DNA of 64,000 nt from Nitrosopumilaceae archaeon (GTDB lineage Archaea > Thermoproteota > Nitrososphaeria > Nitrososphaerales > Nitrosopumilaceae). Under the pieces are notes generated by a model. It did not search any database, was not told the origin of the DNA, and saw only the letters and a program-made list of their open reading frames with translations. A program made the translations under genes and the position numbers. This document shows, piece after piece, positions 2,223-31,737 of the stretch. The first letter of the stretch is position 1. The number at the start of each line of letters is the position of its first letter. The stretch is from contig CBDCCK010000002.1 of assembly GCA_965214835.1 (NCBI GenBank), positions 736,001 through 800,000 on the forward strand, written 5' to 3'.

Positions 2223-2345
2223 TAATGCAAGGAACGCGTATAGTGGCGATTAAAGTTCTTGAGCACATGCGGGCATGAACTATGCATGGAGAGGCCCTTT
2301 GATGATCAAAGACATTCAACTGCCACCATAGGATCGGTCAACGAC

Positions 2346-11202: not shown

Positions 11203-11305
11203 AGTTTATGTCTTTTTGAAAGTTGACTATAATACATCTCGTGTGGATCGACTCTAAACCTAATGCTTTCTGACAACATGTAACTTTAGAGAATTAGATC
11301 TTTAA

Positions 11306-11473
11306 TTATTTTTTTGCAGTTCGTTTCTTTACTACTTTCTTACAGCGATCCTTGTAATATTCGTCTGCTCTTTTGAAGAATTCAATCTCTTTTTTTGTAG
11401 CCTTGCGCCTCATATATTTGTCAAAGTTCTCGGCATTCTTGCCTTCCAGTACGATTGGTTTGTTTGGAATCAT
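11306..11473 (-). CDS. Small basic protein, putative antitoxin of the GNAT
   Basis: Own translation: MIPNKPIVLEGKNAENFDKYMRRKATKKEIEFFKRADEYY..., 55 aa, upstream of the GNAT on the same strand. Confidence 0.55.
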   Translation of the reverse strand: MIPNKPIVLEGKNAENFDKYMRRKATKKEIEFFKRADEYYKDRCKKVVKKRTAKK

Positions 11474-14900: not shown

Positions 14901-16616
14901 GACCTTATGCGTAAACGAAATTAGCGGCGATGCCCCCGGCGCACGGGCTACAAATGAGGCAAGTCAGGGCCGGCGCACGCGCGACTGTACCTTACAACGT
15001 TGAAAATATTTGATCAAAACCACAACTATTTTCAGACGATTGATTTAGATCCGGGATCCATTCTCGCATAAGAGTAATGGCAAAGTCCGAGACCGAGCAG
15101 ATACGACTGCTGAAGAAGAGAATCGAGCAGTACGAGAAGGAGAAGGTACAGGACAGGAAGGAGAAGGCGCGGGACAAAAAGAAGATCAAGAAGTATGAGA
15201 AGAGGATCAAGAGGCACGAGAAGAAGAGCAGGCAGGACAGGAAGGAGAAGGCGCGGGACAGGACGGAGAGGATGCAGTACAGGAAGGAGATCAGAGAGTA
15301 CGAGAAGAAGAGCAGGCAGGACGGCAGGAGGCAGGAGCGGGATCAGGAGAGGATAGGGCAGCTGGAACAGCAGCTGGACGCCGAGCGCCGGATGTGGCCC
15401 GCAACCTGGGATGACGACAGGCGCTCCGCGGACAACGCCGCCCTCATGCACAGGCTCGAGGTGCTCGATGACATAATCGGTGGCGGGTCCCTGCAGCCCA
15501 CCACGTCGATGAACCTCCGCCAGTTTGACTACATATATGACCGGTTTACGAAGCTTGCCAAAAAGCACACAGAAGGCCCCCTGTTCTCAGAAGACGAGGA
15601 CAACTTGCCCGGAAACCGGTGCAAGCTGTCCTACCGCCACGCCCTGCTGATGTCGCTGATGCGCAAGTACGGAAACCCGACACAGGAGCAGCTTGCGGCA
15701 TTCTTTGGCATAGACCAGAGCACCGTATGCAGGTACCTCAGGTATTGCGACATGATATTCACCAAGATACTGCCCACGCCGGACGCCGTATCGCGAAAGA
15801 TACGAAACGCCCGCACGATCAAGGAAGTCAAGAAGATCGTCCCGGATCTGACCGTGATTGTAGACGGCACGCACATCGACATACAGCGCCCCACAGACAA
15901 GGAGCCAAGAAAGGAGGCATACTCTGGCAAGAAGAAGAGCTTTACGCGCAACACCCAGGTGATTGCCGACAAGAAGGGACTGGCGATGTATGCAAGCAAG
16001 TCGGCGCCCGGAAGCACGCACGACCTCACCATGATAAAGAACAACCCACCGGATCTGGGAATCCTGACTGCCAGGATGCGCAGCAACAGAAAGCACCCCG
16101 AGGACGAGAAGGTAAAGATGTTCTCTGATCTGGGATACATGGGAATCGAGGAGGTGTATCCCGGGGCCACATCCGTGCAGCCCGACAAGAAGCCAAGGAA
16201 AGGCAAGCTTACAAAGAAACAGAAAGCGCAGAACAGGAGGATAAGCAGCAAGAGGGTGACAGTAGAGCACGCCATAGGACGGATAAAGCAGTACAAGCGG
16301 ATGCGTGATCCGTACGACGGGACCGCCGAGGAGTTCGACAGGGAGTTCCAGGTGACGGCCGGGCTTGCCAACTTTAGGCTGCTGTGGGACAAGCGGAACA
16401 AGAAGCTCATGCATGGGTTCTGATACCACGATACGGAGCGCATTGCGGCGCCACACGATGCCGCACGACATTGTCGTTTTTACCAGCTGTAATGGCTCGT
16501 AGCTACACTATATACGGACTGTGCCGCCCTCATGCACGTCATGTGATGCCGTCAGCCTTGCATGTATGGCCGGTCACCGTCGGAATATTTCGATCCGGTC
16601 GATTACGCATAAGGTC
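14901..16616 (+). mobile_element. Apparently intact IS5-family (ISL2/PIF-like) element
   Basis: TIR GACCTTATGCGTAA / TTACGCATAAGGTC, TA duplication. Confidence 0.9.
15077..16423 (+). CDS. IS5-family DDE_Tnp_4 transposase with a long charged N-terminus
   Basis: HTH (QEQLAAFFGIDQSTVCR), IVDGTH..QRP, YSGKKK, PGSTHD, SDLGY, RVTVEHAIGRIK. Confidence 0.92.
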   Translation: MAKSETEQIRLLKKRIEQYEKEKVQDRKEKARDKKKIKKYEKRIKRHEKKSRQDRKEKARDRTERMQYRKEIREYEKKSRQDGRRQERDQERIGQLEQQLDAERRMWPATWDDDRRSADNAALMHRLEVLDDIIGGGSLQPTTSMNLRQFDYIYDRFTKLAKKHTEGPLFSEDEDNLPGNRCKLSYRHALLMSLMRKYGNPTQEQLAAFFGIDQSTVCRYLRYCDMIFTKILPTPDAVSRKIRNARTIKEVKKIVPDLTVIVDGTHIDIQRPTDKEPRKEAYSGKKKSFTRNTQVIADKKGLAMYASKSAPGSTHDLTMIKNNPPDLGILTARMRSNRKHPEDEKVKMFSDLGYMGIEEVYPGATSVQPDKKPRKGKLTKKQKAQNRRISSKRVTVEHAIGRIKQYKRMRDPYDGTAEEFDREFQVTAGLANFRLLWDKRNKKLMHGF

Positions 16617-16691
16617 TACTGTAAGGAAAACCGCCGACGGCAGACTTGAAAGGCACAACCAAGACGACCCAAATTCACGATCTGTGCATGA

Positions 16692-17231
16692 TCAATTCTT
16701 CTTGCGCGCGTAGATTCTGTCTATTATCACCCCGACTACCACTATTGCCAAACCAACCACCAAGGCACTTGGCAAGTCCAAGATAACGTCAGAATCTGAA
16801 TCCACACCATAATCAGTCTGGACGTTCAATACATGCAACGCTAGCGGCATTAGACCTGTAATGCCGAGCGCCACGAACTTCACACTGCCGCGAAGAATTC
16901 GTTTCAGGAATCTGGCTTCGTCCTTGTTTTGGGTTCCGGGCAGCACCAGCAAACCCTTTGCTATTCTGAAATGCCTGCGCTCTACACCCTTCCTGATAAT
17001 TTTCTTACTGGTGATCTCTAGCAGGCCTATTGATTCCATCTTGTGCAGGTGGTGGACCACCAAGTTGGGGCGAAGTTCAAGATCCCTTGCGATTTCATTG
17101 GCATACATGGTCCGGTCAATCAACGCCTTGATCATTTTGCGACTGGATTCGTTGCCAAGGAGCTCGCCAAGAATCTTCAAGGATTCGTCGGTGGATAAAA
17201 CCTTGATCTCGTCATTTCCTTCTTCGTCCAC
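16692..17231 (-). CDS. ArsR-type winged-helix regulator with two C-terminal TM helices
   Basis: LGNESSRKMIKAL..MYANEIA..L..NLVVHHL.KM...GLL; hydrophobic C-terminus. Confidence 0.8.
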   Translation of the reverse strand: MDEEGNDEIKVLSTDESLKILGELLGNESSRKMIKALIDRTMYANEIARDLELRPNLVVHHLHKMESIGLLEITSKKIIRKGVERRHFRIAKGLLVLPGTQNKDEARFLKRILRGSVKFVALGITGLMPLALHVLNVQTDYGVDSDSDVILDLPSALVVGLAIVVVGVIIDRIYARKKN

Positions 17232-17373
17232 ATCGTTGGGTTGAAACCATGAACCCTAAATACCATTCCACGACCTAATTCAAAGATCGATTGGTCTGGA
17301 GTTGCAGGACTGACCGTCATGACCTGCGAGTTTGAGCAAATTTCAGGCTGTCATGATAACTGATGATGATTTT

Positions 17374-17480
17374 GTGAACTACCAACGACTAAAGCCGTTG
17401 GCTTCCTCGTTCAACGAGCCGGCTTGACCATGGCGATTTGTCATGACCAGAGGCCTTCTCTCCGGAGGCGTGACTTTCCC
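17374..17480 (-). mobile_element. IS200/IS605- or IS607-type right end (TnpB omegaRNA scaffold-like remnant), no tnpB gene
   Basis: Minus strand GGGAAAGTCACGCCT...GGCTCGTTGAACGAGGAAGCCAACGGCTTTAGTCGTTGGTAGTTCAC: terminal hairpin plus TCAC, typical of these ends. Confidence 0.7.
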
Positions 17481-17635
17481 GCGTCCCACAGACAAGGATC
17501 CAAGAAAGGAGGCGTACTCGGGCAAGAAGAAGAGCTTTACGCGCAACGTCCAGGTACTGGCCGACAAGAGGGACCTGACGATGTATGCAAGCGAGTCGGC
17601 TCCCGGAAGCGCGCACGACCTCACCATGATAAGGG
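17481..17635 (+). pseudogene. Internal fragment of the IS5-like transposase
   Basis: RPTDKDPRKEAYSGKKKSFTRN...PGSAHDLTMI, homologous to ~15885-16040. Confidence 0.85.
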
Positions 17636-19044
17636 ACAACTCGCTTTCTACGCTGCCCCTGCGGCAGATAATTCCGGATGATGACGCCAACTGGCTGAAC
17701 CAGACAGACAACGACTTTGATGAATTGGTTCCAGTCATAGATACGGATGGCGGAACTTCGCTGTTTAGGACACTGTTGATGGGATCAACGTCAGGTCGAG
17801 ACGAGTGGGTATGTGACTTTACTAAATCATCACTTCAGAGCAAGATGAAATACTTTGCTAAATTTTACAATGACACAATTAAAAAATATAATGAAGAGAA
17901 ACTAGATGGTGATCTAAAAGACTGGGTGGATAAGAAGATCAAATGGGGTAGGGAAATTATTAAACGATTGAAGCATGGAGATGAAATAGTCTACTCTGAC
18001 ACCAACATCAAAAATCTACTGTATAGACCGTTTGTATTAAAATTTCATTATTTTGATAGGATAATAGTCGATTATCAAAGAAAGTTCCCACAAATTTTTA
18101 AAGATAACAACCCAAACAAAATCATTTGTTTTGTAAACCCGCAAAATAATTCAACATTCCAAACCTTGGCAACTAATCAGATTGCAGAATATCATCTAAC
18201 TGACACGACACAATGTATTCCGCTTCATACATACGATATGGATAATTACAGTTCCAGCAATGTGACAGAATCTGGACTAGAACTATTCCAAAAACATTAC
18301 AAGGACAAAACGATAACTGATGAAGACATATTCTACTACACCTACGCCATCTTCAGCGATCCAAAATACTCTGGCAAATACAAGTTTAACCTGCAGCGCA
18401 AATTTCCGCGAATCCCGCTGGCTGAGAATTTCAGGGAGTGGGTGAGGATAGGTCAGAGGCTGTACATCCTGCATACGGAGTTTGAGGATGCAGAGCCTTA
18501 CGCGTTGCACAGAATAGACAAAAAAACCCGCAAAAATGGCACCAAGCTAAGACTGAAAAAATCCGACGAAAACCAATCTGTGATAATAATAGATGAGCAG
18601 ACCGTCCTTGACGGTGTCCCAAGCCAGGCTTTGGAATACAAGCTCGGTTCAAAGTGTGCACTGGAGTGGATTCTGGAGTTCTACAAGGAATCAAAGAACG
18701 TCATAAAAGAAAAGTCATGCGATGATCCCGCAATACGCGAGAGATTCAACACGTACAGGTTTGCAGACCACAAGGAGCATGTCATAGACCTGCTGCAAAG
18801 GGTTACCACGGTCTCGGTAGAGACAGTGAAGCTGCAGCGAGAACTCGAAAGAATGCCCTGGGGGGAACAGCCAAAACCATACCTTGGAAAATCTGACGTC
18901 AGTGTCGACAAGGCAACGAAAAAACCGCAAATGAGGAAATCCAAACAGCCCAAAAAGCCAAAAGTCGCAAAGAAGAACAGAAGGAAATCCGGGCTCCAGG
19001 ACACGCTTGACGGATCCGGGCAGAAAAGGCTGTTTGGGAACTAG
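17633..19044 (+). pseudogene. Orphan C-terminal (specificity) part of a Type ISP-like methyltransferase, cassette A
   Basis: DNSLSTL..WLNQTDNDF..LYRPF..FPRIP..CALEWILEFYKE..GQKRLF; open frame; paralogue of 27371-30565. Confidence 0.85.
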
Positions 19045-19126
19045 GCCACGGCAGAGTCACATACAGCCCAGCTCCCTAAGTTAACGCCAGAAACCCCTAA
19101 CTTAACACCCCGCTGAAAAGCCCCGA

Positions 19127-19164
19127 AGATTTACCAGAGTACTAAACTGTACTCTGGTAAATCT
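19127..19164. repeat. Perfect 16-bp inverted repeat with a 6-bp spacer (left border site)
   Basis: AGATTTACCAGAGTAC-TAAACT-GTACTCTGGTAAATCT. Confidence 0.95.
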
Positions 19165-19287
19165 CCGAGAGTTTTCAGAGACCTGTTAAATTAGGGTGCT
19201 GGGGTGTTAAATTAGAGTGTTAGAGACGTCGGCAAGAACAAACGATTGATGGCACGCTACAAGCGTTGGCTTCGGGAATGTTGAAGG

Positions 19288-21159
19288 TCAGAACAGCCTT
19301 TTCTGGCCGGTTCCGTCAAGCGTGTCTTGGAGCTTGGATTTCTTTGATTTCTTGGGTTTTTTAGGCTGTTGTCTGGTTTTTTTTGTTTGCAATTTTCTCA
19401 TCGTCTTGTCATTGCCGGCATCAGACTTCTTAAGGTGCAGTTCCGGCTGCTTCCCCCAAGGCATGTTTTCAAGATCCCGCCGCAGATTCATCGTCTCGAC
19501 TGAGATACTGGTGACCTTTTGTAGTAGGCCTATGACATGTTCCTTGTAATCTGCAAACCTGTACGTGTTGAACTTTTCCCGGATTTTGGGATCATCGCAG
19601 GATTTGTCGGATATGACGTTCTTTGATTCCTTGTAGAATTCTAAGATCCATTCCAGTGCGCATTTTGAGCTGAATTTGTATTCCAATGCTTGATCAGGTA
19701 CATCCTCAAGTATGGTCTGCTCATCAATCACTATTTTCAATGACTCGCTTTCTGATTTTTTTAAACTCAATTTGGTGCTGTTCTTGTTTGTTTTCCTGTC
19801 TGTGCGTTTTAACGGAAATGGCTCTGCCTCTTCAAAATGGACATGAAGGTCATAGAGTTTTTTGCCTAGCCGTACCCATTTCGAAAAATTTTCTGCGAGA
19901 GGTATTCTTGGGAACTTGCGCTGGAGATTGAACTTGTATTTTTCTTGGTATTTCGGATCATTGAAAATGGCATAAGTATAGTAGAATACGTCCTCGTCTG
20001 TTATCGTTTTGCTCCCGTAGTGTTTTTGAAATAACTCCAAACCAAAGTCAGTAATGTTGCTGTGACGCTTGCCCTCGTCATCGTATGTGTAAAGCGGGAT
20101 GCACTGAGTGCCAACAACACAATCAAGATCCATGATTTTATCAGTTGCCAATGTCTGAAATAACACATTAGTTTTTGGATTGGCAAAACCAATTAGCCTG
20201 TTTGATCTAGAATTTTTGAAGATGTTAGGAAATTTTCTCTGCCTATGTGTTATTATTTTATCAAAATAATTCTTCTTCAATACAAATGGCCTATACATTA
20301 CGTCTTTGATGTTGGATTTTGAATATGCGATTTTATTTCCACGTTTTATATGCTTAAAGAAATCCTCGGTCCACTTGATTTTTTTATCTGCCCAGTCTTT
20401 TAGACTAACCGCTAGGTTTTCTTCATCATATTTAGAAAGTGTTTTGCTGTAAAAATCAACAAAATATTTTATCTTGTTTTCAAGCGATGTTTGGTCAAAA
20501 TCATACACCCATTCGTTCCTGTTTGATGCCAGTCCCATAGACAGTACTCCAAATATGGAATTTTCTTTATCAGACACGATCGGAACCAGTTTTTTAAAAT
20601 CATTGTCAGTCTGGTTCAGCCAGACCGCATCCTCGTCGGGCACTATCTCCCTTAGCTGCAGGGTAGAAAGCGAGTTGTCCGCAAGCCATTTTAGCTTAGC
20701 TTCACTTTTCATATAGTCTGCAATTTCTGTGTATCTAATCTCAGATTTTTCTTCACCCGTTTTGATAAAAAAGGATATGGTTACACCAACCTTGATGGTG
20801 TCTCGAAACACGTTGCCTTTCTGTTTGCGGCGTTCCTCGCCTGATGTACGAGCATTTCCCTTCAGGTTGACAGTATAGATGTAATCAAACTCTTCAAACA
20901 CCGACCTCCTGAACCCATCGTCTGACTTTGCGTCAAGAAAGGAGTTGTTGCTCACAAATATGACCATGCCGTTGTTCTTGATGCGCTCGCTTGCCCACTT
21001 GAGAAAGCGCTTGTACATGTCATACTGCTTATCCTTGTTCCCTACAGTGGAATTTTTGACGTACGTTTCTTCTATTTTCTTATCAAGGTCAGGATATTTG
21101 TCAGCAGGATTTGCGTCGTTAAAGCTTACCTGGACCGCGTTGTACGGCGGGTTTCCCAA
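19288..21159 (-). pseudogene. 5'-truncated alternative C-terminal half of the Type ISP-like methyltransferase (from GNPPY to stop), cassette B
   Basis: Open frame; homology to the full gene begins abruptly at TTGGGAAACCCGCCGTAC; lacks the SAM-binding motif I. Confidence 0.9.
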
Positions 21160-22330
21160 AACTCGCCTTAGTATGTGTGAGCATATCCAGAACACAGTTA
21201 ATCTGTTGCGGTGTTGCCCGCTCTAAGATCTCCTGTATTTGCTGTTTCGGTTCTGATCTAGAAATTACACCCACCTGATCCAAGTATTCCTCGGATCTTG
21301 CAAAGGCATCACTCATTTCATTTAGCAAAACTTCTGGAAGGATCCCCTTGTTTGTGGTGTATCTTGATTCGATGGTGCCTTTATGCCCCATGAAGAAGAC
21401 TCGGAAATCATGCGCAATCTTTCCTTTAGACTCTGCTATTAGCAGCTGTGTGTCAAAATATGCACGTAGCACATACGGCCTCCACCCAAATTTGGGTCGG
21501 AGCGTATTGCGTATTTTGTCGCTTATTCGTTGTGTTGGAAGGAACGCCTTTTGCGATCTTCTCCAAGCATGTACTTCACTATGATCGTTGGGGGATATTA
21601 CGGGTGAGTTCTCGTCCAGATTCTCCCCAGACGCAAGTCTGTCGTTTAGATACGTCACTAGCTGTTCTGTTGCTTGACATGTGGAGAATGTAAAGTACTG
21701 GTGTCCTGCCTTTGACAATTCACGTCTTACGATGATTCGGTTTGGCGTCCGGATGCATTTTACTGTTCCATGTAAAATCGAAATATCTGGAAGATCCCTC
21801 ATCTGTAACCCATCTGTCCCTCTGTGGTTACCAATTACGCCCGGTCTCATACCTGATTTTGCCATAAGTGATATCAGCACGGATTCTCGCAATCCTGCAT
21901 TGCTGTATATGTCTGTCATTTCATGTGCATCAGGCACCCGTTCATTCTGCAGTGTGGGAGAAAACCCAGCAGATGCAATTCTTATTCGTCGCTTTACCAC
22001 CACATCAAAATGCCTGAACCAGGATTTTACGGTGTTTATATGATCCTCTATGTATCCAGGAGAATAGTTGTTGGACTCCATCATGGTTATGTGATCCTCC
22101 AGCAGGTCTGTTGCAGTCCTCAGATCGTTGACTGCAAGATCTGCAAGCTGGGAGGGAGTCATCTTGTGCATCTCACAGAACCTTCCCAGCTTCCGCAGGC
22201 GTCCCTCGGCGGTAAGAGGACTTCCACGCATCAGATTGTCATACCACCGTTGGACATCCTGATTAGATAGTAATTTTGATTTCTTGGTGTGGTTGGCAAC
22301 GTCTTTTGCACACGCTTTACGGGTTTTCAT
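21119..22330 (-). CDS. Tyrosine recombinase/integrase (archaeal type)
   Basis: SGMRPG (R), ELSK (K), PYVLR (H/YxxR), FMGH (H), RYT (Y). Confidence 0.9.
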   Translation of the reverse strand: MKTRKACAKDVANHTKKSKLLSNQDVQRWYDNLMRGSPLTAEGRLRKLGRFCEMHKMTPSQLADLAVNDLRTATDLLEDHITMMESNNYSPGYIEDHINTVKSWFRHFDVVVKRRIRIASAGFSPTLQNERVPDAHEMTDIYSNAGLRESVLISLMAKSGMRPGVIGNHRGTDGLQMRDLPDISILHGTVKCIRTPNRIIVRRELSKAGHQYFTFSTCQATEQLVTYLNDRLASGENLDENSPVISPNDHSEVHAWRRSQKAFLPTQRISDKIRNTLRPKFGWRPYVLRAYFDTQLLIAESKGKIAHDFRVFFMGHKGTIESRYTTNKGILPEVLLNEMSDAFARSEEYLDQVGVISRSEPKQQIQEILERATPQQINCVLDMLTHTKASFGKPAVQRGPGKL

Positions 22331-22400
22331 ACGGATTGGTTTTAGATGCCTAATCTTATCCTTATGCGTGACAGGGCATCCACTGTTAAAAAATAAGGCA

Positions 22401-23744
22401 TCAGGAAAGCAGTTTCATCCAGCAGCTGTTTTTTCCATTTGACAGCCAGCTGAATCCGTGCAGACGTAGTATATCATTGATTTCCCGCCAGATGTGCTTG
22501 TCAATCCATGCCCTGGGAGATATTTTGATAGAATCCCCCTCGTTCACAATTGAAACTTTGCTAATTCTCTTTCCCAAATTGCTTGTAAAACTCGGTGTCG
22601 TCATCGACTGTTTTATCAGGTCCAAATACTTGTCGTTTCCAAGTCCAAGCTCGATCCCTGATGCCTGAGCCGGAGTCCTGCCGTCAAGCCCCTGATGCGG
22701 TTTTACAAAATTGTGGTTTATTTTCAGCAACTCTGCAAAGTCCTGTGCTGACTCGTCATTGCCAAGGCCGCGTCTTGCCTTTAGGTTCTCTCTGATCTCG
22801 TTGTGATACCTCTCTATGGGCCTGTTTGCAAACCCGTCCCTGATGGATTTTGTTTTGACATGTGCTGTCATTTCTTTGAATTCTTTTCGCATTGCCTCCT
22901 GATACGAGTTTAAGGCATCTGTAATGACATAGTTAGGATACTTGGGTATCAGCTTCTTACCGCTTGCTATGATTCTTCTTGCATCTGCAATCTCGCGTCT
23001 CTTGGAGACTTCGGTAGCAATCAGAAATCGGGTCTTGGGATCAATGATGCTCCACAACCAGTCATAGAATCCCTTTCCAGTCTTCTCTGTGTTTTTTACG
23101 TTCAGCGTCATCTCATCCAAAGACCATACATCACCAAGCGTTGGACAAAATGACTCCACGTATTCTTTGATCAGTTGGGTGTATTTTTTTATCCAATTTC
23201 TAACGGAGACGTAACTGATCTTAATTCCGTGGACGGAATTGATGTGTCTTGAAATGTTTCTGTACGAGACGCCTGACATGACTAGGTTGATTGATTCGGA
23301 TATTATCTTTGGATCAGACGACATCTTTGAAAACCCGCTTTCTCCAAGGTTGAACCTATAGCCGCATTGCTTGCATTTGTATAGTTGTCTCTTTGTATCA
23401 TCCTTGAGAATTCTGAACCCAGACTTGATTATTGTAGTCGAATAACATTTGGGACAGATTCTTGGCTGTTCCGTCTTTTCAATCCTATTTTGGGTCTTGA
23501 TGTTGTCCTTTAGCATTATGCAACATATGATATGCTTGCAATGCTTGTCGTCTTGTGTTCTGAGCCGGTTATGAAAATCCGGACACTCGCATGTCCATAT
23601 GTCTATGTCATGCAGTTTTTTTACGCTATATTCCTTGTCGGAGTTTTGTGATTTTACTACATAGTGGTTCTTTGTTATCTTTCTGACCGAGTTGACCTTT
23701 GAGAGGATCTGGACTGCTTTTTCATCCCTACTTGTATACTTCAT
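22401..23744 (-). CDS. IS6-like DDE transposase/integrase with an N-terminal SWIM finger and Zn ribbon
   Basis: WTCECPDF..CKHI (SWIM), CPKC..CKQC, WSLDEM, IIDPKTRF, ITDAL, NRPIERYH, NFVKPHQGLDGRTPA. Confidence 0.85.
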   Translation of the reverse strand: MKYTSRDEKAVQILSKVNSVRKITKNHYVVKSQNSDKEYSVKKLHDIDIWTCECPDFHNRLRTQDDKHCKHIICCIMLKDNIKTQNRIEKTEQPRICPKCYSTTIIKSGFRILKDDTKRQLYKCKQCGYRFNLGESGFSKMSSDPKIISESINLVMSGVSYRNISRHINSVHGIKISYVSVRNWIKKYTQLIKEYVESFCPTLGDVWSLDEMTLNVKNTEKTGKGFYDWLWSIIDPKTRFLIATEVSKRREIADARRIIASGKKLIPKYPNYVITDALNSYQEAMRKEFKEMTAHVKTKSIRDGFANRPIERYHNEIRENLKARRGLGNDESAQDFAELLKINHNFVKPHQGLDGRTPAQASGIELGLGNDKYLDLIKQSMTTPSFTSNLGKRISKVSIVNEGDSIKISPRAWIDKHIWREINDILRLHGFSWLSNGKNSCWMKLLS

Positions 23745-23829
23745 ATTGTATAGATAACGGTATATCTATAAAACATTATCTGCCTAAAGCCAGATATCCT
23801 TTATATATGTGGATTCACATATTCGAATA

Positions 23830-23988
23830 TTGGCAAGGAAAAAAACAAGTCTCACTTTGGATGAGAAAATCTGGAATAACTTTCAGGCATACGCATTAAA
23901 AAAACACGGAAACACTCGTAACGCCAACACAGAACTGGAGCTTGCCATGTATGAATACATTAAGAATCACCCTGTGGAGAAAAAATAG
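23830..23988 (+). CDS. Small ribbon-helix-helix-like regulator
   Basis: Own translation (TTG start): MARKKTSLTLDEKIWNNFQAYALKKHGNTRNANTELELAMYEYIKNH.., 52 aa, divergent from the transposase and upstream of the RM genes. Confidence 0.65.
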   Translation: MARKKTSLTLDEKIWNNFQAYALKKHGNTRNANTELELAMYEYIKNHPVEKK

Positions 23989-24074
23989 AATGAATGTTAA
24001 CCGCAAATCGTCAAGGATGCCTGTATTGGGCGGTAAAAATCTAAAAATTCAAAAACAAGCCAAACGCGTGATTC

Positions 24075-27000
24075 ATGGGTAACGGTGAACTAATCATGGG
24101 TAGTGAGGATACGGTAATTGACAATGAGAGTGTCGTACTTTTAGATCAACTAAGAGAGATACTGCCAGATACGAACAGGGCAAGCATTGCGGTGGGCTAT
24201 TTCTTCATCTCTGGATTCAGCGCAATAATGGGTAGCTTAAACAAGATAGAGTCAAGCAGCGACCCAAACCACGTTATACGGCTGTTGATCTCACCGACTA
24301 CAAACCGGGCCACGGCAGAGGCGTTACTTGCAAGCAACGAGTCTTATGAAACAGCAAGAATGAGGGGCAAACAAACCGGTTCTGAGGAAAGAGGAAAAAA
24401 GACCGCAAAAGAAGAGGTCAAAAAAACGCTTGAGTACATGTCGCAAACAAACGAGGATCAAAAGGCTACAGCGAAACTTGCCGAACTGATCAAAAAGAAA
24501 AAAGTGCAGGTGAAGGTATATACAAAGGATCAACTTCATGCAAAGGCGTATATTTTCGAGCTTGACAACAGACAGCTTTCAAAGATGGCAATAGTAGGTT
24601 CCAGCAACCTCTCAATGTCGGGGATAAAGGAGCATACTGAGCTTAATCTGAGAACAAATCACTCAGGCGACTCTGGCAAACTGCTAGAATGGTTTGATCG
24701 ACATTGGAACGATCCCAGCTGCCAGGAATTCACGCGGGAGATAGCTGACATCATAGATGAATCCTGGATTGCCAAACACTCGCCAAATGACGTGTACGAC
24801 AAGGCGGTTCTTCATGAGCATGAAGAACTTTTTGAAGAGCCCGACGGAGTAGATGAAAAAACACGAGAGTTGTTTGACTTTCAAAAGACGGCAGTAAGCA
24901 ACGCCATAAAAAAACTCGACAGGTATGGGGGTGTCATGATTGCCGATGTGGTGGGTACAGGCAAATCCTACATTGGTAGTGCCATTCTAAAGCATCTCAA
25001 GGAGAACAACCGCTCAAAACCACTGATAATATGCCCACCCCACCTCAAGGAGATGTGGCAGGAATACATGAAAGATTTTGACATTTACTGCCAGATAGAA
25101 TCAAGATACAAGATAGGCATGGAGGATAACATACTCTCACGCTACACAAACTGCGACGCGGTGTTGATAGACGAGAGTCACAACTTTCGCAATTCAAGCA
25201 CAAACGCATACAGGGCACTGCTTGCATTCATGGAGGAAAAGACAGAAGAGGCCAAGATAATCATGCTGTCTGCCACCCCGATATCAAACCGCATCACGGA
25301 TCTAAAGAACCAGCTAAGGCTTTTCCCAAGAGAGATGCTCTTGCAGATACCTCCCCTGAACAACACAACACTTGATGAATACTTTAAGGGATTAGACGGC
25401 CCAAAAGACGAGCTCAGAGAGGAGGCCGACACCAAGATACGGGAACTTCTCAAGTATATTCTAATCCGACGTACCCGCAAGCAGATCATGAAAAAGTATG
25501 CCAAAAAAGACGGCAAACGGTACTATCTTGAAAAGGACGGGCAACGAAAGTACTTTCCAAGAAGAGAGTTACAGAATCCAAAGGAGTACAATGTTGACAA
25601 GGTGTACAACAACTCCTTTGACATGATCCAAAGCGCGATTGAGGATCTTACCCTTGCGAGGTTTGCCCCGGGAAACTACATCAAGAAAGAATATCTGAAC
25701 GACTCTAACCCGGACCACAAAAAATATGTCGATTTGAACAGTACGACAAAGCCACTGGTTGGCATAGTTCGGACATCGCTACTCAAGAGGATGGAAAGTA
25801 GCATCATGGCGTTTGCATCCAGCGTAAAGCACTATCAGGAAGGGTACAAGGAGTTCAGAAAGCAGCTTGACAAGGGCAAGGTTCCCATCGGAAAGGACTT
25901 TCATGATGAGATATACAAGAAGATCGCATACGAGGGGGAAGACTATGACGACGAGGAGTACGAGCAGAAAATGGCAAAGATCTCATCTCAGTACGACATA
26001 GAGGCGTTTGACGTGGAACGTTGGAAGAGGGACATAGCAGAGGACATTAACCGTTTTTCAAGCATCAAGGGGAATCTGGTGTCAAAGTCCGAGTATACCA
26101 AATATGATGACAAGCTCCACACGCTGGTAAAACTGGTCAACGGAATGGACAGGGAAAAGATTCTGATCTTTTCTGAATCTGCCGTAACCGCAAAATACGT
26201 CTACGAATACATGAAAAAGGAACTAAATCCGCCTCGTCGTATTGCGCAGATTGACTCTAAACAGGGAAACAGGGAGAAAAATGTCTTGATCAGGAAGTTT
26301 GATCCGAAGAACAACAACGCTACTGCTGATGTTCCAAAAAGCGAGGAGATTGACGTGTTGATAAGCACGGACGTACTGTCTGAGGGAGTGAACTTGCAAG
26401 CTGGCAAGACGGTAATCAACTATGACTTTCACTGGAATCCCGTCAGGCTCATACAGAGAGTAGGAAGGATAGACAGGATAGGCACGCAACACGAAACTGT
26501 CGACGTGATCAATTTCCTTCCTACGGCAAAGATTGACGCGACTCTCTCGCTCAAAGAAAGGGTTGCAAACAAGATTGAGACCATCCGCAGGATAATAGGA
26601 CATGATCAGCAGATACTAGAGTCAACAGAAGTATTGGACGAAAAGGGCGTGCTTGACATTTATGCTGGTAACGAGGACGTACTGGATTCTGATGTTGCAA
26701 GCATCATTGATATGGGCGAATCAAAGTCAGAACAAGACGCAGACAATATAAAAAGAGATGAGACAAGAAGACAACATATCGAGCAGATGCCCTTTGGCAT
26801 AAGAAGCGTTTCAGGCACGGGTAAGCTTCTGATAGCGTGCGAGGCACGGGAGATTGTAATGGATCAGCGTGGCCGCCACATGTCTGAACGTCCGTTTAGA
26901 AGACACTACGAAATAACGAAGGACAGCATTACTCAGATCTGGCAGTCATCCTTCCTGAACGAGTTGGGGAAAAACCAAGGAAACCTATCCGGCACGGAGG

Positions 27001-27374
27001 ATTCCACATATAACGAGCTTGTGGCTGAAGCGTGGAAAAAGTTCGATAAGGACATGAAAAATTCCAGTGCAAAAAAGACCATGCTAAAGCACCAGCAATA
27101 CTTTGATAAAAAATTAAGACAGATGTCCGAAAGTCAGGACTTGGGCCGTCGCGCAATGTCCATGCTGCCGTTCGTAGGACAGAGAATGCTTACAAATCTC
27201 CAGCCGTACAAGAGGCTAACCGAGCTTCGCAAGGAGATTGACAGGAATCCCGACACTGATGACAAGATGATAATCGAGGGGTTGGAAACGATCAGGGATA
27301 AATACGGACAGACGGAATATGAAAAGACGATAAGCAAGCCTCGTATACTGTATAGCATGATGGTGGCCAAATGA
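24075..27374 (+). CDS. PLD-family nuclease plus SF2 (SNF2-like) helicase, putative restriction subunit
   Basis: AVGYFF, LHAKAYIF..IVGSSNLS..ELN (PLD); ADVVGTGKS, DESH, SATP, TDVLSEGVNLQ, WNPVRLIQRVGRIDR. Confidence 0.9.
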   Translation: MGNGELIMGSEDTVIDNESVVLLDQLREILPDTNRASIAVGYFFISGFSAIMGSLNKIESSSDPNHVIRLLISPTTNRATAEALLASNESYETARMRGKQTGSEERGKKTAKEEVKKTLEYMSQTNEDQKATAKLAELIKKKKVQVKVYTKDQLHAKAYIFELDNRQLSKMAIVGSSNLSMSGIKEHTELNLRTNHSGDSGKLLEWFDRHWNDPSCQEFTREIADIIDESWIAKHSPNDVYDKAVLHEHEELFEEPDGVDEKTRELFDFQKTAVSNAIKKLDRYGGVMIADVVGTGKSYIGSAILKHLKENNRSKPLIICPPHLKEMWQEYMKDFDIYCQIESRYKIGMEDNILSRYTNCDAVLIDESHNFRNSSTNAYRALLAFMEEKTEEAKIIMLSATPISNRITDLKNQLRLFPREMLLQIPPLNNTTLDEYFKGLDGPKDELREEADTKIRELLKYILIRRTRKQIMKKYAKKDGKRYYLEKDGQRKYFPRRELQNPKEYNVDKVYNNSFDMIQSAIEDLTLARFAPGNYIKKEYLNDSNPDHKKYVDLNSTTKPLVGIVRTSLLKRMESSIMAFASSVKHYQEGYKEFRKQLDKGKVPIGKDFHDEIYKKIAYEGEDYDDEEYEQKMAKISSQYDIEAFDVERWKRDIAEDINRFSSIKGNLVSKSEYTKYDDKLHTLVKLVNGMDREKILIFSESAVTAKYVYEYMKKELNPPRRIAQIDSKQGNREKNVLIRKFDPKNNNATADVPKSEEIDVLISTDVLSEGVNLQAGKTVINYDFHWNPVRLIQRVGRIDRIGTQHETVDVINFLPTAKIDATLSLKERVANKIETIRRIIGHDQQILESTEVLDEKGVLDIYAGNEDVLDSDVASIIDMGESKSEQDADNIKRDETRRQHIEQMPFGIRSVSGTGKLLIACEAREIVMDQRGRHMSERPFRRHYEITKDSITQIWQSSFLNELGKNQGNLSGTEDSTYNELVAEAWKKFDKDMKNSSAKKTMLKHQQYFDKKLRQMSESQDLGRRAMSMLPFVGQRMLTNLQPYKRLTELRKEIDRNPDTDDKMIIEGLETIRDKYGQTEYEKTISKPRILYSMMVAK

Positions 27375-30300
27375 GTTTTGAGGATCGCCTGGAATCCCTT
27401 CAAAGGACGCTGAAATTAAGCGGATATGAGAATATACGCCATTTCGTTGACATAAGCGCGCTAGTAAGGGACGAATCAGTAAGCGACTGTGAGATAATAG
27501 CGCGCAAGGATTTCTACAACATCTTATATCTGGAGGCAAAGTCAAACTGGCGCGGCATTGCCACCGACGTGGCCAAAAAGCAGTCAAAGCCATGCCTTGT
27601 CATCACTGGCTACGGGGAATCACACCTGATCCTATCCACCATCAAGGATTACTTTACAAATCCAAGACCGCGCCATGTCATCATCGACACAAGATCCAAG
27701 ACACATTCTTTTGACGGATTTGCAAAGCTGATCAAGGTAAGGCCGGAGGACGATTTTGTATCTATAGATGAGCAAGTACACCATGCGTTTGATGAATTTG
27801 CGGCGTACGAGGAGGCGCTTGACGAATTCGGCGAGAACCTCAAAAACGCAATAAAAAACACACGGGAAATCATAGTAAAGGCATCAAAAAACAACAAGAG
27901 ATACGACGCAGAGTCTGAACAGTTTCTGGAGATGTGTCACAAGGTGATAAGCAACAAGCTCAAATCAGACGACATTACAGAGATGATTCTTCAGCATGTC
28001 CTGACATACAAGATCTTCTCCCTGATATACGACGAGCACGAACTCCACAGCACCAATGCAATAGCACGGTCACTTGAGGGCATAATAGATACGCTTGGAG
28101 TCGATATGGAGCAGATTAGTACCGGCTACCAGACGACAAAACTGGTAGCCGAATCGCTTACAGATTTTGCCGAAAAGCAGGACTTTCTCAAACGCGTGTA
28201 TGAGACGTTTTATGCAGAGTATGACCCAAAAAACAAGGACAGTTGGGGAATAGCATACACCCCATCAGAGGTTGTGGATTTCATGGTAAGGTCGACCGAC
28301 CAGCTGCTTGAAAAACACTTTGGAAAATCAATGTCCGATGATTGTGTTACCCTACTTGATCCGGCCACCGGTACGGGAACATTCATTACACAGATCCTGA
28401 GGCACCTGAAGCACAACTCTGTCAAAACCAAATACGAAAATGACATATTTGCAAACGACATATCGTTACTGGCATACTACATTGCTGCGCTGAACATAGA
28501 GAATACATACCAAGAGATAACAGGGCAAGTCAAAGAGTTTGAGAACATATGCTGGATGGATACCCTTGCTACTGGCACAAAGGACTTTGGGAAGGTAAGC
28601 ACGTATTTTGATGAGCAGGACAATGTAAAGAGGATCTCAAAGCAGCAAGTAAAGGACATATGTGTGGTCTTGGGAAACCCGCCGTACAACGCGGTCCAGG
28701 TAAGCTTTAACGACGCAAATCCTGCTGACAAATATCCTGACCTTGATAAGAAAATAGAAGAAACGTACGTCAAAAATTCCACTGTAGGGAACAAGGATAA
28801 GCAGTATGACATGTACAAGCGCTTTCTCAAGTGGGCAAGCGAGCGCATCAAGAACAACGGCATGGTCATATTTGTGAGCAACAACTCCTTTCTTGACGCA
28901 AAGTCAGACGATGGGTTCAGGAGGTCGGTGTTTGAAGAGTTTGATTACATCTATACTGTCAACCTGAAGGGAAATGCAAGACTGTCTGGTGATGCATGGA
29001 GACGCGAGGGGGATAAAATATTTGGCCAGAGTGCGCGTGTTGGCATATCCATATCTTTTTTTATAAAAACGGGAGAAAATCATTCAGAGATACGATACGT
29101 GGAAATAGACGATTATTTGAAGAGGGAAGATAAGCTAAAATGGCTTGCGGACAACTCGCTTTCTACCCTGCAGCTAAGGGAGATAGTGCCCGACGAGGAT
29201 GCGGTCTGGCTGAACCAGACTGACAATGATTTTAAAAAACTGGTTCCGATCGTGTCTGATAAAGAAAAATCTGTCTTTGAATTGCTTTCAATGGGTTTAA
29301 CATCTAATAGAGACGAATGGGTGTATGATCTAGGCCGGAAATCACTTGAAAACAAAATGAGGTATTTCGTTGATTTTTACAACAAATCAGTCGCACAATA
29401 TCAGAATGAACATCCTAAGGATACAGAATTCAAAGACTGGGCAGATAAAAAAATCAAGTGGACCGAGGATTTCTTTAAGCATATAAAACGTGGAAATAAA
29501 ATCGCATATTCAAAATCCAACATCAAAGACGTAATGTATAGGCCATTTGTATTGAAGAAGAATTATTTTGATAAAATAATAACACATAGGCAGAGAAAAT
29601 TTCCTAACATCTTCAAAAATTCAAGCCGTAATAGACTGATTAATTTTACAAATCCTACACCAAAAAGCCGATTTCATGCGCTTGTGTCAGACAAGATCGT
29701 TGATCTTCATTATGTTATTGACACTCAATGCATTCCGCTTTACACATATGATGATGGGGGCAAGCGTCACAGCAACGTCACTGACTTTGGTTTGGAGTTA
29801 TTTCAAAAACACTATAGGAACAAAGCGATAGCAGACGAGGACATATTCTACTACACCTATGCCATTTTCAATGATCCGAAATACCAAGAAAAATACAAGT
29901 ACGATCTGCAGCGCAAATTCCCAAGAATTCCGCTGGCTGAGAATTTTGGTGATTGGGTGAAAATAGGCAGGAAACTGTATGATCTCCATGTCAACTTTGA
30001 ATGTGTCAAAAAGTATCCATTGAAGCGAACAGACAAAAAGACTGCAAAAAATCAAACCCGACTCCTGCTGAAAAAACCGAAAGAGGAAGACAACTCTCAG
30101 GATTTTACCATAATGATTGATGATAATACGATGCTTGAAGGAGTGCCAAAAGAAACGTTGCAATACAAATTCAGCTCAAAATGCGCACTGGAGTGGATCT
30201 TAGAATTCTACAAGGAATCAAAGAACGTCATATCCGACAAATCCTGCGATGATCCCAAAATCCGGGAAAAGTTCAACACGTACAGGTTTGCAGATTACAA

Positions 30301-30565
30301 GGAACATGTCATAGGCCTACTACAAAAGGTCACCAGTATCTCAGTCGAGACGATGAAGCTGCGGCGGGATCTTGAAAACATGCCTTGGGGGAAGCAGCCG
30401 GAACTGCACCTTAAGAAGTCTGATGCCGGCAATGACAAGACGATGAGAAAATTGCAAACAAAAAAAACCAGACAACAGCCTAAAAAACCTAAAAAACCCA
30501 AGAAATCAAAGAAATCCAAGCTCCAAGACACGCTTGACGGAACCGGCCAGAAAAGGCTGTTCTGA
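27371..30565 (+). CDS. N6-adenine DNA methyltransferase with a Type ISP-like C-terminal specificity domain
   Basis: GIAYTP..VVDFMVRS, LDPATGTGTF, GNPPY, NLKGN, RDEWVY, YRPF, FPRIP, ALEWI; ATGA overlap with the helicase stop. Confidence 0.92.
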   Translation: MSFEDRLESLQRTLKLSGYENIRHFVDISALVRDESVSDCEIIARKDFYNILYLEAKSNWRGIATDVAKKQSKPCLVITGYGESHLILSTIKDYFTNPRPRHVIIDTRSKTHSFDGFAKLIKVRPEDDFVSIDEQVHHAFDEFAAYEEALDEFGENLKNAIKNTREIIVKASKNNKRYDAESEQFLEMCHKVISNKLKSDDITEMILQHVLTYKIFSLIYDEHELHSTNAIARSLEGIIDTLGVDMEQISTGYQTTKLVAESLTDFAEKQDFLKRVYETFYAEYDPKNKDSWGIAYTPSEVVDFMVRSTDQLLEKHFGKSMSDDCVTLLDPATGTGTFITQILRHLKHNSVKTKYENDIFANDISLLAYYIAALNIENTYQEITGQVKEFENICWMDTLATGTKDFGKVSTYFDEQDNVKRISKQQVKDICVVLGNPPYNAVQVSFNDANPADKYPDLDKKIEETYVKNSTVGNKDKQYDMYKRFLKWASERIKNNGMVIFVSNNSFLDAKSDDGFRRSVFEEFDYIYTVNLKGNARLSGDAWRREGDKIFGQSARVGISISFFIKTGENHSEIRYVEIDDYLKREDKLKWLADNSLSTLQLREIVPDEDAVWLNQTDNDFKKLVPIVSDKEKSVFELLSMGLTSNRDEWVYDLGRKSLENKMRYFVDFYNKSVAQYQNEHPKDTEFKDWADKKIKWTEDFFKHIKRGNKIAYSKSNIKDVMYRPFVLKKNYFDKIITHRQRKFPNIFKNSSRNRLINFTNPTPKSRFHALVSDKIVDLHYVIDTQCIPLYTYDDGGKRHSNVTDFGLELFQKHYRNKAIADEDIFYYTYAIFNDPKYQEKYKYDLQRKFPRIPLAENFGDWVKIGRKLYDLHVNFECVKKYPLKRTDKKTAKNQTRLLLKKPKEEDNSQDFTIMIDDNTMLEGVPKETLQYKFSSKCALEWILEFYKESKNVISDKSCDDPKIREKFNTYRFADYKEHVIGLLQKVTSISVETMKLRRDLENMPWGKQPELHLKKSDAGNDKTMRKLQTKKTRQQPKKPKKPKKSKKSKLQDTLDGTGQKRLF

Positions 30566-30688
30566 CCTTCAACATTCCCGAAGCCAACGCTTGTAGCGTG
30601 CCATCAATCGTTTGTTCTTGCCGACGTCTCTAACACTCTAATTTAACACCCCAGCACCCTAATTTAACAGGTCTCTGAAAACTCTCGG

Positions 30689-30724
30689 AGATTTACCAGA
30701 GTACTAAACTGTACACTGGTAAGT
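30689..30724. repeat. Right border site (arm-TAAACT-imperfect arm)
   Basis: AGATTTACCAGAGTAC-TAAACT-GTACACTGGTAAGT. Confidence 0.9.
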
Positions 30725-30765
30725 TAACGGGAGCTGATTTCTCCTGGAAGGCGTCGGGAGCCGGA
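30711..30765 (-). mobile_element. End remnant of the IS6-like element
   Basis: CTGGTAAGTTAACGGGAGCTGATTTCTC matches 10382-10410 and the reverse complement of 31700-31733. Confidence 0.75.
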
Positions 30766-30918
30766 ACCGGTGGCTATCCCTCATGCTAACGGCCGGGTGA
30801 TGTCGGAGGAGGTGACCTAGTACAAAAGAAGGCTTCTTGGTTTTGTCTGGATTTGGCTCAGCGTCTCATTTGGCATCTTGGGTTGGCCGGTTGATGCTAG
30901 TCACGCACAGAATATACG

Positions 30919-31200
30919 CTAGTCTAGAATGACTGGTCTCCAGTCAGACAGATTACGGGAGTTATAATTGCACTCATCCTGATCGTTGTACATCCATTCG
31001 TTATTGTCTAATATCACAACGCCGCCAAAGAGGCTCTTGGAGTTCTTTATGTATCGCGTAAGCGCTTCGGCCTTGTATTTGGCCTCTTTTGCAGTAAATC
31101 CTTCCTTGGTATCGAACAGCCCTACCTTGCCATTCTCCATGCGGATTATAAAATCAAGCCGGAGCAAATCCGGATGAGTATTTCCTGACGAAGGTATCAA
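30919..31200 (-). pseudogene. C-terminal fragment of a Type III-like restriction (Res) endonuclease
   Basis: DFIIRMENGKVGLFDTKEGFTA...KAEAL..Y...GGVV; PD-(D/E)xK-like; truncated. Confidence 0.55.
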
Positions 31201-31228
31201 AAACTCACTGTATTTCTTCCGCGCTAGC

Positions 31229-31737
31229 TGGATTCCGAGACACGGTTCTGGCTGGCCCAGACGGTCTCAGAACACAAGGGAAACGACGACGTGTCCCCGA
31301 TGTTCAGGGATGCCAAGAGGAAGGCAAGCAAAATCCCAAAGATGCTGATATCGGACAGGGCTGCAAACTTTCACCATGCATGGAGGGAGCAGTACCGATC
31401 CAAGAACTTCCTCCACAAGGACACCGAACATCACAGGAACATCCATCTCTCCGGCGACATGAACAACAACCAGATGGAGTCATTCAACGGCAACACACAG
31501 GGCCTGCGAGAAGGTGATCCGTGGGATTAAGAGGGACGATTCTGCCATACTCAGGGGGATGCAGATCCACCACAACTACATCAGGCCCCATCAGGGTCTT
31601 GACGGCGACATGCCGGCAGACAGGGCCGGAATCAGAATAATGGGAGAAAACAAGTGGAAGACCATAATCCAGAACGCCCATACCAGCTCCCGACGCTTTC
31701 CGGGAGAAATCAGCTCCCGTTAGCTTACCAGTCCCCA
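31229..31737 (+). pseudogene. Frameshifted IS6-like transposase 3' half with its element end
   Basis: DSETRFWLA, LISDRAANF, NNNQMESFNG, HNYIRPHQGLDG; ends TTACCAGTCCCCA. Confidence 0.8.

Follow-up and report, generated by a model that had tools for sequence, protein, structure and literature searches.

The question raised by this locus is whether two palindromic sites that bracket a set of restriction-modification (R-M) genes are the core sites of a tyrosine recombinase or the ends of a transposon. The locus lies in a stretch of 64,000 nucleotides, referred to here as the window, from an IS-rich archaeon of the Nitrosopumilaceae kind. A perfect 16-6-16 palindrome with the spacer TAAACT was found at 19127-19164, together with a near copy at 30689-30724, both just as an earlier reading made from the letters alone (the sequence-only reading) had described. 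In the arm of the near copy a single letter is mismatched (A for T at 30715), and the sequence diverges beyond it. That reading had also placed TAAACT in the same orientation at both sites despite the inversion of the adjoining DNA, which we confirmed: the spacer is direct at 19143-19148 and 30705-30710, while 19122-19734 and 30110-30731 are inverted copies with 94-95% identity. The inverted copy runs on to 21162 and 28667, with identities by stretch of 100% (311 nt), 83-86% and 94-95%, and its outermost 217 nt (19149-19365 and 30488-30704) are perfect.

We also analyzed the short repeats around the two sites. The sequence CTAANTTAAC has six matches in the window against 0.30 expected, a number reached in none of 100 shuffles, and TTACCAGWGTAC, with at most one mismatch, has four against 0.19 expected, again reached in none of 100 shuffles. 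The CTAANTTAAC matches lie at 19076 and 19097 (+), 19185 and 19206 (-), and 30638 and 30659 (+). They are always paired, 21 bp from start to start, and at both sites the palindrome arm begins 21 bp past the point where the second repeat ends, so that the claim of such pairs following the methyltransferase 3' ends also held. The view of the near copy as a symmetrical site needs correction: the palindrome is present, but most of its right arm, from 30715 on, belongs to a degenerate IS6-like element as its terminal repeat, and only GTAC at 30711-30714 is not IS-derived.

We consider it likely that the two palindromic sites mark the inverted ends of a DDE transposon of 11.6 kb, which carries R-M genes and inserted exactly between two older transposon ends. 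The element occupies 19149-30704 (11,556 bp), with perfect 217-bp ends and TAAACT on each side. The features of the locus are as follows.

17443 to 19044, + strand: remnant specificity cassette (A), left from the 3' portion of an older gene for a Type ISP methyltransferase (Pfam Type_ISP_C, E 1.2e-74)
19055 to 19142, + strand: terminal repeat of the older element A, with subterminal repeats at 19076-19085 and 19097-19106 and the terminal 16-mer at 19127-19142 (nhmmer E 4.7e-22)
19143 to 19148: TAAACT, left copy of the putative target duplication, present once at the empty site (runs X1 and X2)
19149 to 19236, - strand: left terminal inverted repeat (end B), whose outermost 217 nt equal those of the right end
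19288 to 21195, - strand: silent inverted specificity cassette B, a methylase tail plus Type_ISP_C (Pfam E 4.2e-76), the inverted copy of 28667-30704
20852 to 21162: inner arm, a 100% identical inverted repeat of 311 nt with its partner at 28667-28977, the likely inversion switch region
21119 to 22330, - strand: predicted divergent tyrosine recombinase (integrase) of 403 aa, from conserved residues and homolog names
22401 to 23744, - strand: predicted transposase of 447 aa with N-terminal zinc ribbons and a DDE domain of the IS240/IS6 type
24075 to 27374, + strand: PLD-nuclease and SNF2-type helicase subunit of the R-M system (Pfam PLDc_2, SNF2-rel_dom, Helicase_C)
27371 to 30565, + strand: methyltransferase with Type ISP coupler and specificity domain (cassette C), the predicted expressed copy (Pfam ISP_coupler, N6_Mtase, Eco57I, Type_ISP_C)
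30617 to 30704, + strand: right terminal inverted repeat (end C), with subterminal repeats at 30638 and 30659 and the terminal 16-mer at 30689-30704
30705 to 30710: TAAACT, right copy of the putative target duplication, from the sequence
30711 to 31732: GTAC and a degenerate IS6-like element, the putative second older end, with 50-nt terminal repeats at 30715-30764 and 31683-31732

Cassette A shares 59-62% identity with cassettes B and C. It is truncated 5' by IS fragments, and Pfam detected a DDE_Tnp_4 fragment at residues 11-71. Cassette B has no N-terminal methyltransferase part. Each end is a terminal inverted repeat of about 80 nt whose three sites are presumably bound by the transposase, and we propose that the segment 19149-30704 inserted into the 6 bp TAAACT between two older ends, one belonging to A, a sister element now decayed, and the other an IS6-like repeat capped with GTAC. 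Such an insertion would have duplicated TAAACT with a 6-bp stagger, and the duplication between facing ends would explain why the left junction is a perfect palindrome and why the two spacers are direct. The cargo would consist of a split Type ISP R-M system, a silent inverted cassette and a tyrosine recombinase, which probably form an inversion switch.

To characterize the ends, we compared the copies of the terminal unit. Its layout consists of two subterminal repeats of 10-12 bp, about 21 bp apart (about two helical turns), a GAAAA box and a terminal 15-mer that is related to the subterminal repeats. Eight copies occur in the archaeon's own genome, of which five sit 3' of Type ISP methyltransferase genes or their remnants (A, B, C, C2:854552 and C2:2242429), one is cut short where it meets the 3' end of a tRNA-Met gene and adjoins a Type III R-M operon, and one lies among IS fragments. 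BLAST matches to the unit were obtained in 16 of 401 family genomes, the own genome counted. Conservation ends at a GTAC-like tip in all copies, and the layout is retained throughout an alignment of 15 ends, in which the terminal and subterminal sites co-vary, as judged by eye: TGACCA is found in genomes G398 and G065, TGAACA in G200 and TTAAC/TTTACC in the window. Co-variation of this kind would be expected of repeated binding sites for one protein.

Some of the copies have peculiar surroundings. At G000:C2:854480-854582, next to a specificity cassette in decay, a partial tandem duplication has produced two copies of an end's terminal 31 nt at a distance of 72 nt, and each copy is followed by CCAAG. 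Two copies of tRNA-Met (CAT), at G000:C2:65290-65400 and 1136305-1136405, differ from the plain copy at 1610594-1610671 by some 33 nt inserted in the D region, and the first of them abuts the truncated transposon end. A metagenome scan with a 29-nt degenerate pattern gave two matches, both of which were free of subterminal repeats and of similarity to the genome and were set aside as chance.

The position of the unit 3' of five methyltransferase ends in the own genome, and of one more in G395, would also suit a transcription terminator or RNA element, since the palindrome would fold into a 16-bp stem; its symmetry would then be a by-product of a tail-to-tail duplication of the cassette. We regard this explanation as scarcely credible. 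Of the eight copies in the own genome, six are without a palindromic partner, whether perfect or nearly so, and the unit also occurs beside a tRNA gene, in plain intergenic DNA and as inverted pairs around unrelated R-M cargo. In addition, a search of the window region and five further loci against Rfam returned nothing at the gathering score except tRNAs in three of the loci; the hairpin itself gave only sub-threshold, miRNA-like matches.

If the sites are transposon ends, as we prefer, then the question is which protein they belong to. The sequence-only reading had called the product of 22401-23744 a SWIM-DDE protein. The DDE part of this name stands, as Pfam matched DDE_Tnp_IS240 (E 5.8e-14); the SWIM part does not, no SWIM match being obtained and zinc-ribbon models being matched instead. 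The NCBIfam IS6 model NF033587 scored 99.2 bits, below its cut-off of 125 bits. The frame is intact, with 454 aa open and no stops. Of 401 family genomes, the own one among them, 65 contain homologs of this transposase at E <= 1e-60, some of them in several copies. In G007, a 65% identical homolog lies just upstream of a copy of the unit. We analyzed 29 transposase loci and found the unit 170-530 nt downstream of the transposase gene and in the same orientation at nine of them (eight of 26 when three unpublished genomes are left aside), and in inverted orientation at one. At the other 19 the unit went undetected with a profile built from the own genome's copies, which may reflect a limit to the sensitivity of that profile.

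Next, nine of the transposase loci were extended (L058 and L093-L100). At six of them (L058, L094, L095, L098, L099 and L100), inverted pairs of the unit bound elements of 4.4-8.0 kb. The transposase, 65-76% identical to that of the window, adjoins one end in all six, and all six carry R-M genes: Type III mod and res in two, DNA methylases in two, a methylase with an S subunit in one and a SNF2 helicase set in one. G065 holds two copies of one 4,976-bp element that are 99.98% identical and have related 55-nt ends, which shows recent mobility. For distant IS6-like copies, 29% identical to the window transposase, a simple script found terminal repeats at none of seven. The linkage between ends and transposase in six genomes fits best with the ends being those of a cargo-carrying DDE transposon family in Nitrosopumilaceae.

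These elements also bear on the other reading that had been offered, in which the palindromes are core sites of a tyrosine recombinase (of the loxP, dif or att kind), CTAANTTAAC marks sites of the arm type, and the segment of 11.56 kb moves in and out of the chromosome as a circle. The 16-bp inverted arms, the asymmetric 6-bp spacer, direct at both borders, and the recombinase gene inside the segment are all as this reading would have them, and a weak GGT(T)AA some 7-10 nt past the spacer at several solitary ends could be a degenerate half site. The junction of an excised circle would be the same as the left border. However, tblastn detected the integrase in none of the six bounded relatives and in none of 21 regions, each about 3 kb long, that surround further copies of the unit. 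Conversely, the module of Nitrosopumilus genome L025 contains a 78% identical integrase and an inverted cassette, but no such unit. Ends that stand alone are without a palindromic counterpart, which is present only where they adjoin a second transposon end, and the counterpart at 30715 is an IS6-like repeat. The claim of recombinase core sites is thus unsupported, and we judge it very improbable. The related idea that an integrative element uses the unit as its attachment site, with the integrase acting on it, was dropped after transposase-linked inverted pairs without integrase had been found.

The transposon reading predicts a site of the form arm-TAAACT-arm from which the element is absent, and this site is present in contigs of the public sequencing runs X1 and X2. 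Contigs of these runs cover 16500-19152 at depths of about 86 and 44, and the right flank similarly, while the depth over 19170-29315 is only 0-5. In each run, one contig matches 17592-19152 with a single other letter and continues with 30-35 nt of IS6-like terminal repeat, joining 19152 to 31732 on the opposite strand. Given that the copies of this repeat differ at only two of 35 positions, the joint shows the repeat and not necessarily an inverted IS. The empty site accordingly reads end A, one TAAACT, GTAC and IS repeat, and the occupied site is longer by 11,562 bp, which is the element plus one TAAACT. Low-depth contigs in X1 are identical to the element, so that a minority there carries it, and runs X3 and X4 hold it (contig 21130-28699). 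The empty site is a result from assembled contigs of two runs of one study, and it would equally be expected from excision by a recombinase.

We also looked for target duplications elsewhere. Among nine elements with both ends defined, a clear 6-bp duplication was found at two, namely the window element (TAAACT) and L099, which is flanked by the direct repeat AAAAGT; none was seen at L058, L094, L095, L097, L098 and L100, and L096 is doubtful. The flank of L099 was sought as a second empty site among 40 relatives of G200, with no match.

The element in the window is flanked by identical direct repeats of 26 bp, its flanks mimicking its ends. This makes the boundary of the insertion and the direction of the change (insertion or deletion) ambiguous, since a deletion mediated by the repeats leaves the same 'empty' site. 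It could accordingly be argued that the ends are transposon relics, that X1 and X2 differ by a deletion (by recombination between the 26-bp repeats, slippage or a loss resembling precise excision) and that the element is no longer mobile. The element is single-copy in its genome, and the transposase is atypically placed, with the integrase and cassette B between it and the end, unlike in the relatives. On the other hand, the right junction, which consists of end C, TAAACT, GTAC and the IS repeat, arises most simply from insertion into a site of the X1/X2 type, and the open transposase frame and the ends, perfect for 217 nt, speak against a relic. We regard loss of this kind as unlikely, and it would leave the identity of the sites undisputed. 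Of the two readings first offered, that of transposon ends with arrayed sites, a putative TAAACT duplication and insertion between two older ends is supported in nearly every detail by what is observed: the end architecture, its link to the transposase in the six elements that it bounds elsewhere, the flanking 6-bp repeat, seen again at L099, and the empty site of X1 and X2.

Ends that face other ends were also analyzed. Among 43 distinct ends, all five that are followed by an inverted copy of their own tip (at least nine of 12 matches) have it at an offset of 6, and by reading of the rows for each end, 6 was the best offset in 11 of the 43, with about two expected. Independent 6-nt cases occur in G010 (spacer CCTACA) and in G118 (AAAATA), the latter in a different subfamily of ends. 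G067 and G022 also show 6 nt, and the facing sequence there looks, by reading of the flanks, like an IS6-type repeat; C2:65240 is a degenerate 6-nt case. The tip of the unit resembles that of the IS6-like repeat of its own genome, CTGGTAA being common to both. The recurrent spacing suggests end-targeted insertion beside resident ends. With regard to the older right-hand end in the window, 14 genomic copies of the IS6-like repeat were compared: the letters before the tip ACTGG are normally GGG, GGA or the like, and GTAC stands there only at 30715. As this GTAC is not IS-derived, the right-hand end is a chimera with a unit-like tip.

What, then, is the role of the integrase? The protein had no sequence match in Pfam, NCBIfam or PDB. 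It has more than 2000 homologs, and among 120 listed, three are named site-specific integrase of Nitrososphaerota by their sources. The residues R162, K207, R289, H316 and Y324 are invariant across 20 homologs. The best Foldseek matches were XerA and Cre, which is only a hint in view of the poor AlphaFold model (mean pLDDT 59.7), and TAL-repeat matches from a PDB profile search were discarded as spurious. The 403-aa protein is probably a tyrosine recombinase. About ten paralogs occur in the genome, including those at C2:544121, 527471, 481528, 1271100, 2007889, 3206004, 1373436 and 658751, and the family is without a Pfam or NCBIfam model despite the number of its homologs.

The L025 module has the same composition as that of the window, with a silent inverted cassette, the integrase, a helicase-nuclease and a methyltransferase, and it contains neither a transposase gene nor a copy of the unit. 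The inner edge of its inverted cassette is a 307-nt repeat of 100% identity, as compared with 311 nt in the window, and both perfect repeats begin at about codon 432-433 of the methyltransferase. At the repeat edge, a stretch of 42 nt is identical across the two genera (window 28652-28695; L025 about 11282-11325). It covers the region of the methylase NPPY motif, while the methyltransferases themselves are 64% identical. Based on these comparisons, the integrase is evidently cargo and belongs to the Type ISP R-M module, with the 42-nt stretch as a candidate crossover site. The recombinase most likely inverts the segment between the 311-nt repeats (21163-28666) and thereby exchanges the specificity domain; it would act only on the cargo. 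The contigs end at the 311-nt repeat, the X3/X4 contig being a case in point, and the orientation of the segment is not visible in them.

Phase-variable R-M loci such as the hsdS shufflons and the pglX inversion combine an inverted silent specificity cassette with an adjacent recombinase. The same silent inverted cassette, adjacent tyrosine recombinase and identical repeat of about 310 nt were found here and in L025, and are thus conserved in two genera. Unlike those loci, the present one is a split Type ISP system, its whole module lies, in this genome, inside a transposon, and its inversion is predicted from the sequence. The Type ISP-like system at 24075-30565 consists of two overlapping genes and has a PLD-type nuclease domain; to our knowledge, the Type ISP enzymes characterized so far consist of one chain and have a nuclease of the Mrr type. 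In L025, direct repeats of a tRNA-Asp 3' end (2651-2688 and 17084-17121) bracket 14.4 kb with the integrase-bearing Type ISP module, which may lie in a tRNA-integrated island.

We also compared the proposed transposon with known families. IS26 inserts preferentially beside a resident copy, and the target duplication of IS6 elements is 8 bp, as against a flanking repeat of 6 bp here. The window transposase shares a DDE domain of the IS240/IS6 type with IS6/IS26 but scores 99 bits against the family cut-off, and the 3-9 kb of cargo within a single unit are a further difference. The ends of 55-90 nt with subterminal repeats differ from the 14-bp inverted repeats described in the sections of the IS6 review drawn on here (PMC7986276), which also mention a zinc finger in some longer members and a passenger gene in one member. 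In its mode of working, the element is like a unit transposon with structured ends.

Insertion sequences of the IS30 type, which target ends, form abutted inverted-repeat junctions. Two ends across a short fixed spacer, and new insertions beside resident ends, are points of likeness. Here, however, the spacer is 6 nt, the junctions join different elements, and targeting is deduced from genome patterns alone. The element also resembles unit transposons that carry defence genes, in that R-M or defence genes lie inside inverted repeats with several, here putative, transposase-binding sites. Defence cargo is described for Tn7-like transposons in the part of PMC8649781 used here, and mobile R-M units bounded by repeats have been proposed earlier for prokaryotes, according to the portion of PMC2853133 used here. 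In contrast to Tn7-like elements, a single IS6-like protein takes the place of TnsABC, the hosts are archaeal, and the cargo is R-M in six of six relatives. The portion of a thaumarchaeal survey used here reports IS-like transposons of one or two genes (PMC6563490), and neither in it nor in the sections of the IS6 review cited above is an IS6-like transposon family carrying R-M genes described.

A wider reading of these results is possible, though we put it forward tentatively and would sooner doubt it than rely on it. There may be an undescribed family of IS6-like unit transposons in Nitrosopumilaceae that is specialized in R-M cargo and homes to the 6 bp beside resident ends, so that defence islands would grow by nesting (end, 6 bp, end). 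In the window, the terminal repeat would have extended inward over the whole specificity cassette, giving a symmetrical transposon in which an internal recombinase swaps specificity without touching the ends. 

Mobile elements of ammonia-oxidizing archaea have been little studied. A transposon family with whole R-M systems as cargo would offer these abundant archaea a concrete way to spread and stack defence genes; the systems carried include a Type ISP system that probably switches specificity, and homologs of the transposase occur in 64 of the 400 other family genomes sampled. The fixed 6-nt spacing from end to end offers a testable rule of target choice, and the structured ends, whose three sites co-vary, lend themselves directly to biochemical study.

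Other repeats of the window were also noted. A MITE-like repeat of 96 nt with CTATAG-tipped inverted ends (window 2239-2332; L012 1347-1443) has about 35 BLAST matches in the genome, and one copy of it abuts a transposon end in G002. The segment 14895-16622 is an IS that encodes a DDE_Tnp_4 transposase (gene 15077-16423) and has terminal repeats of 24 nt; the genome contains at least 16 copies of it with 97.8-100% identity, along with many fragments.
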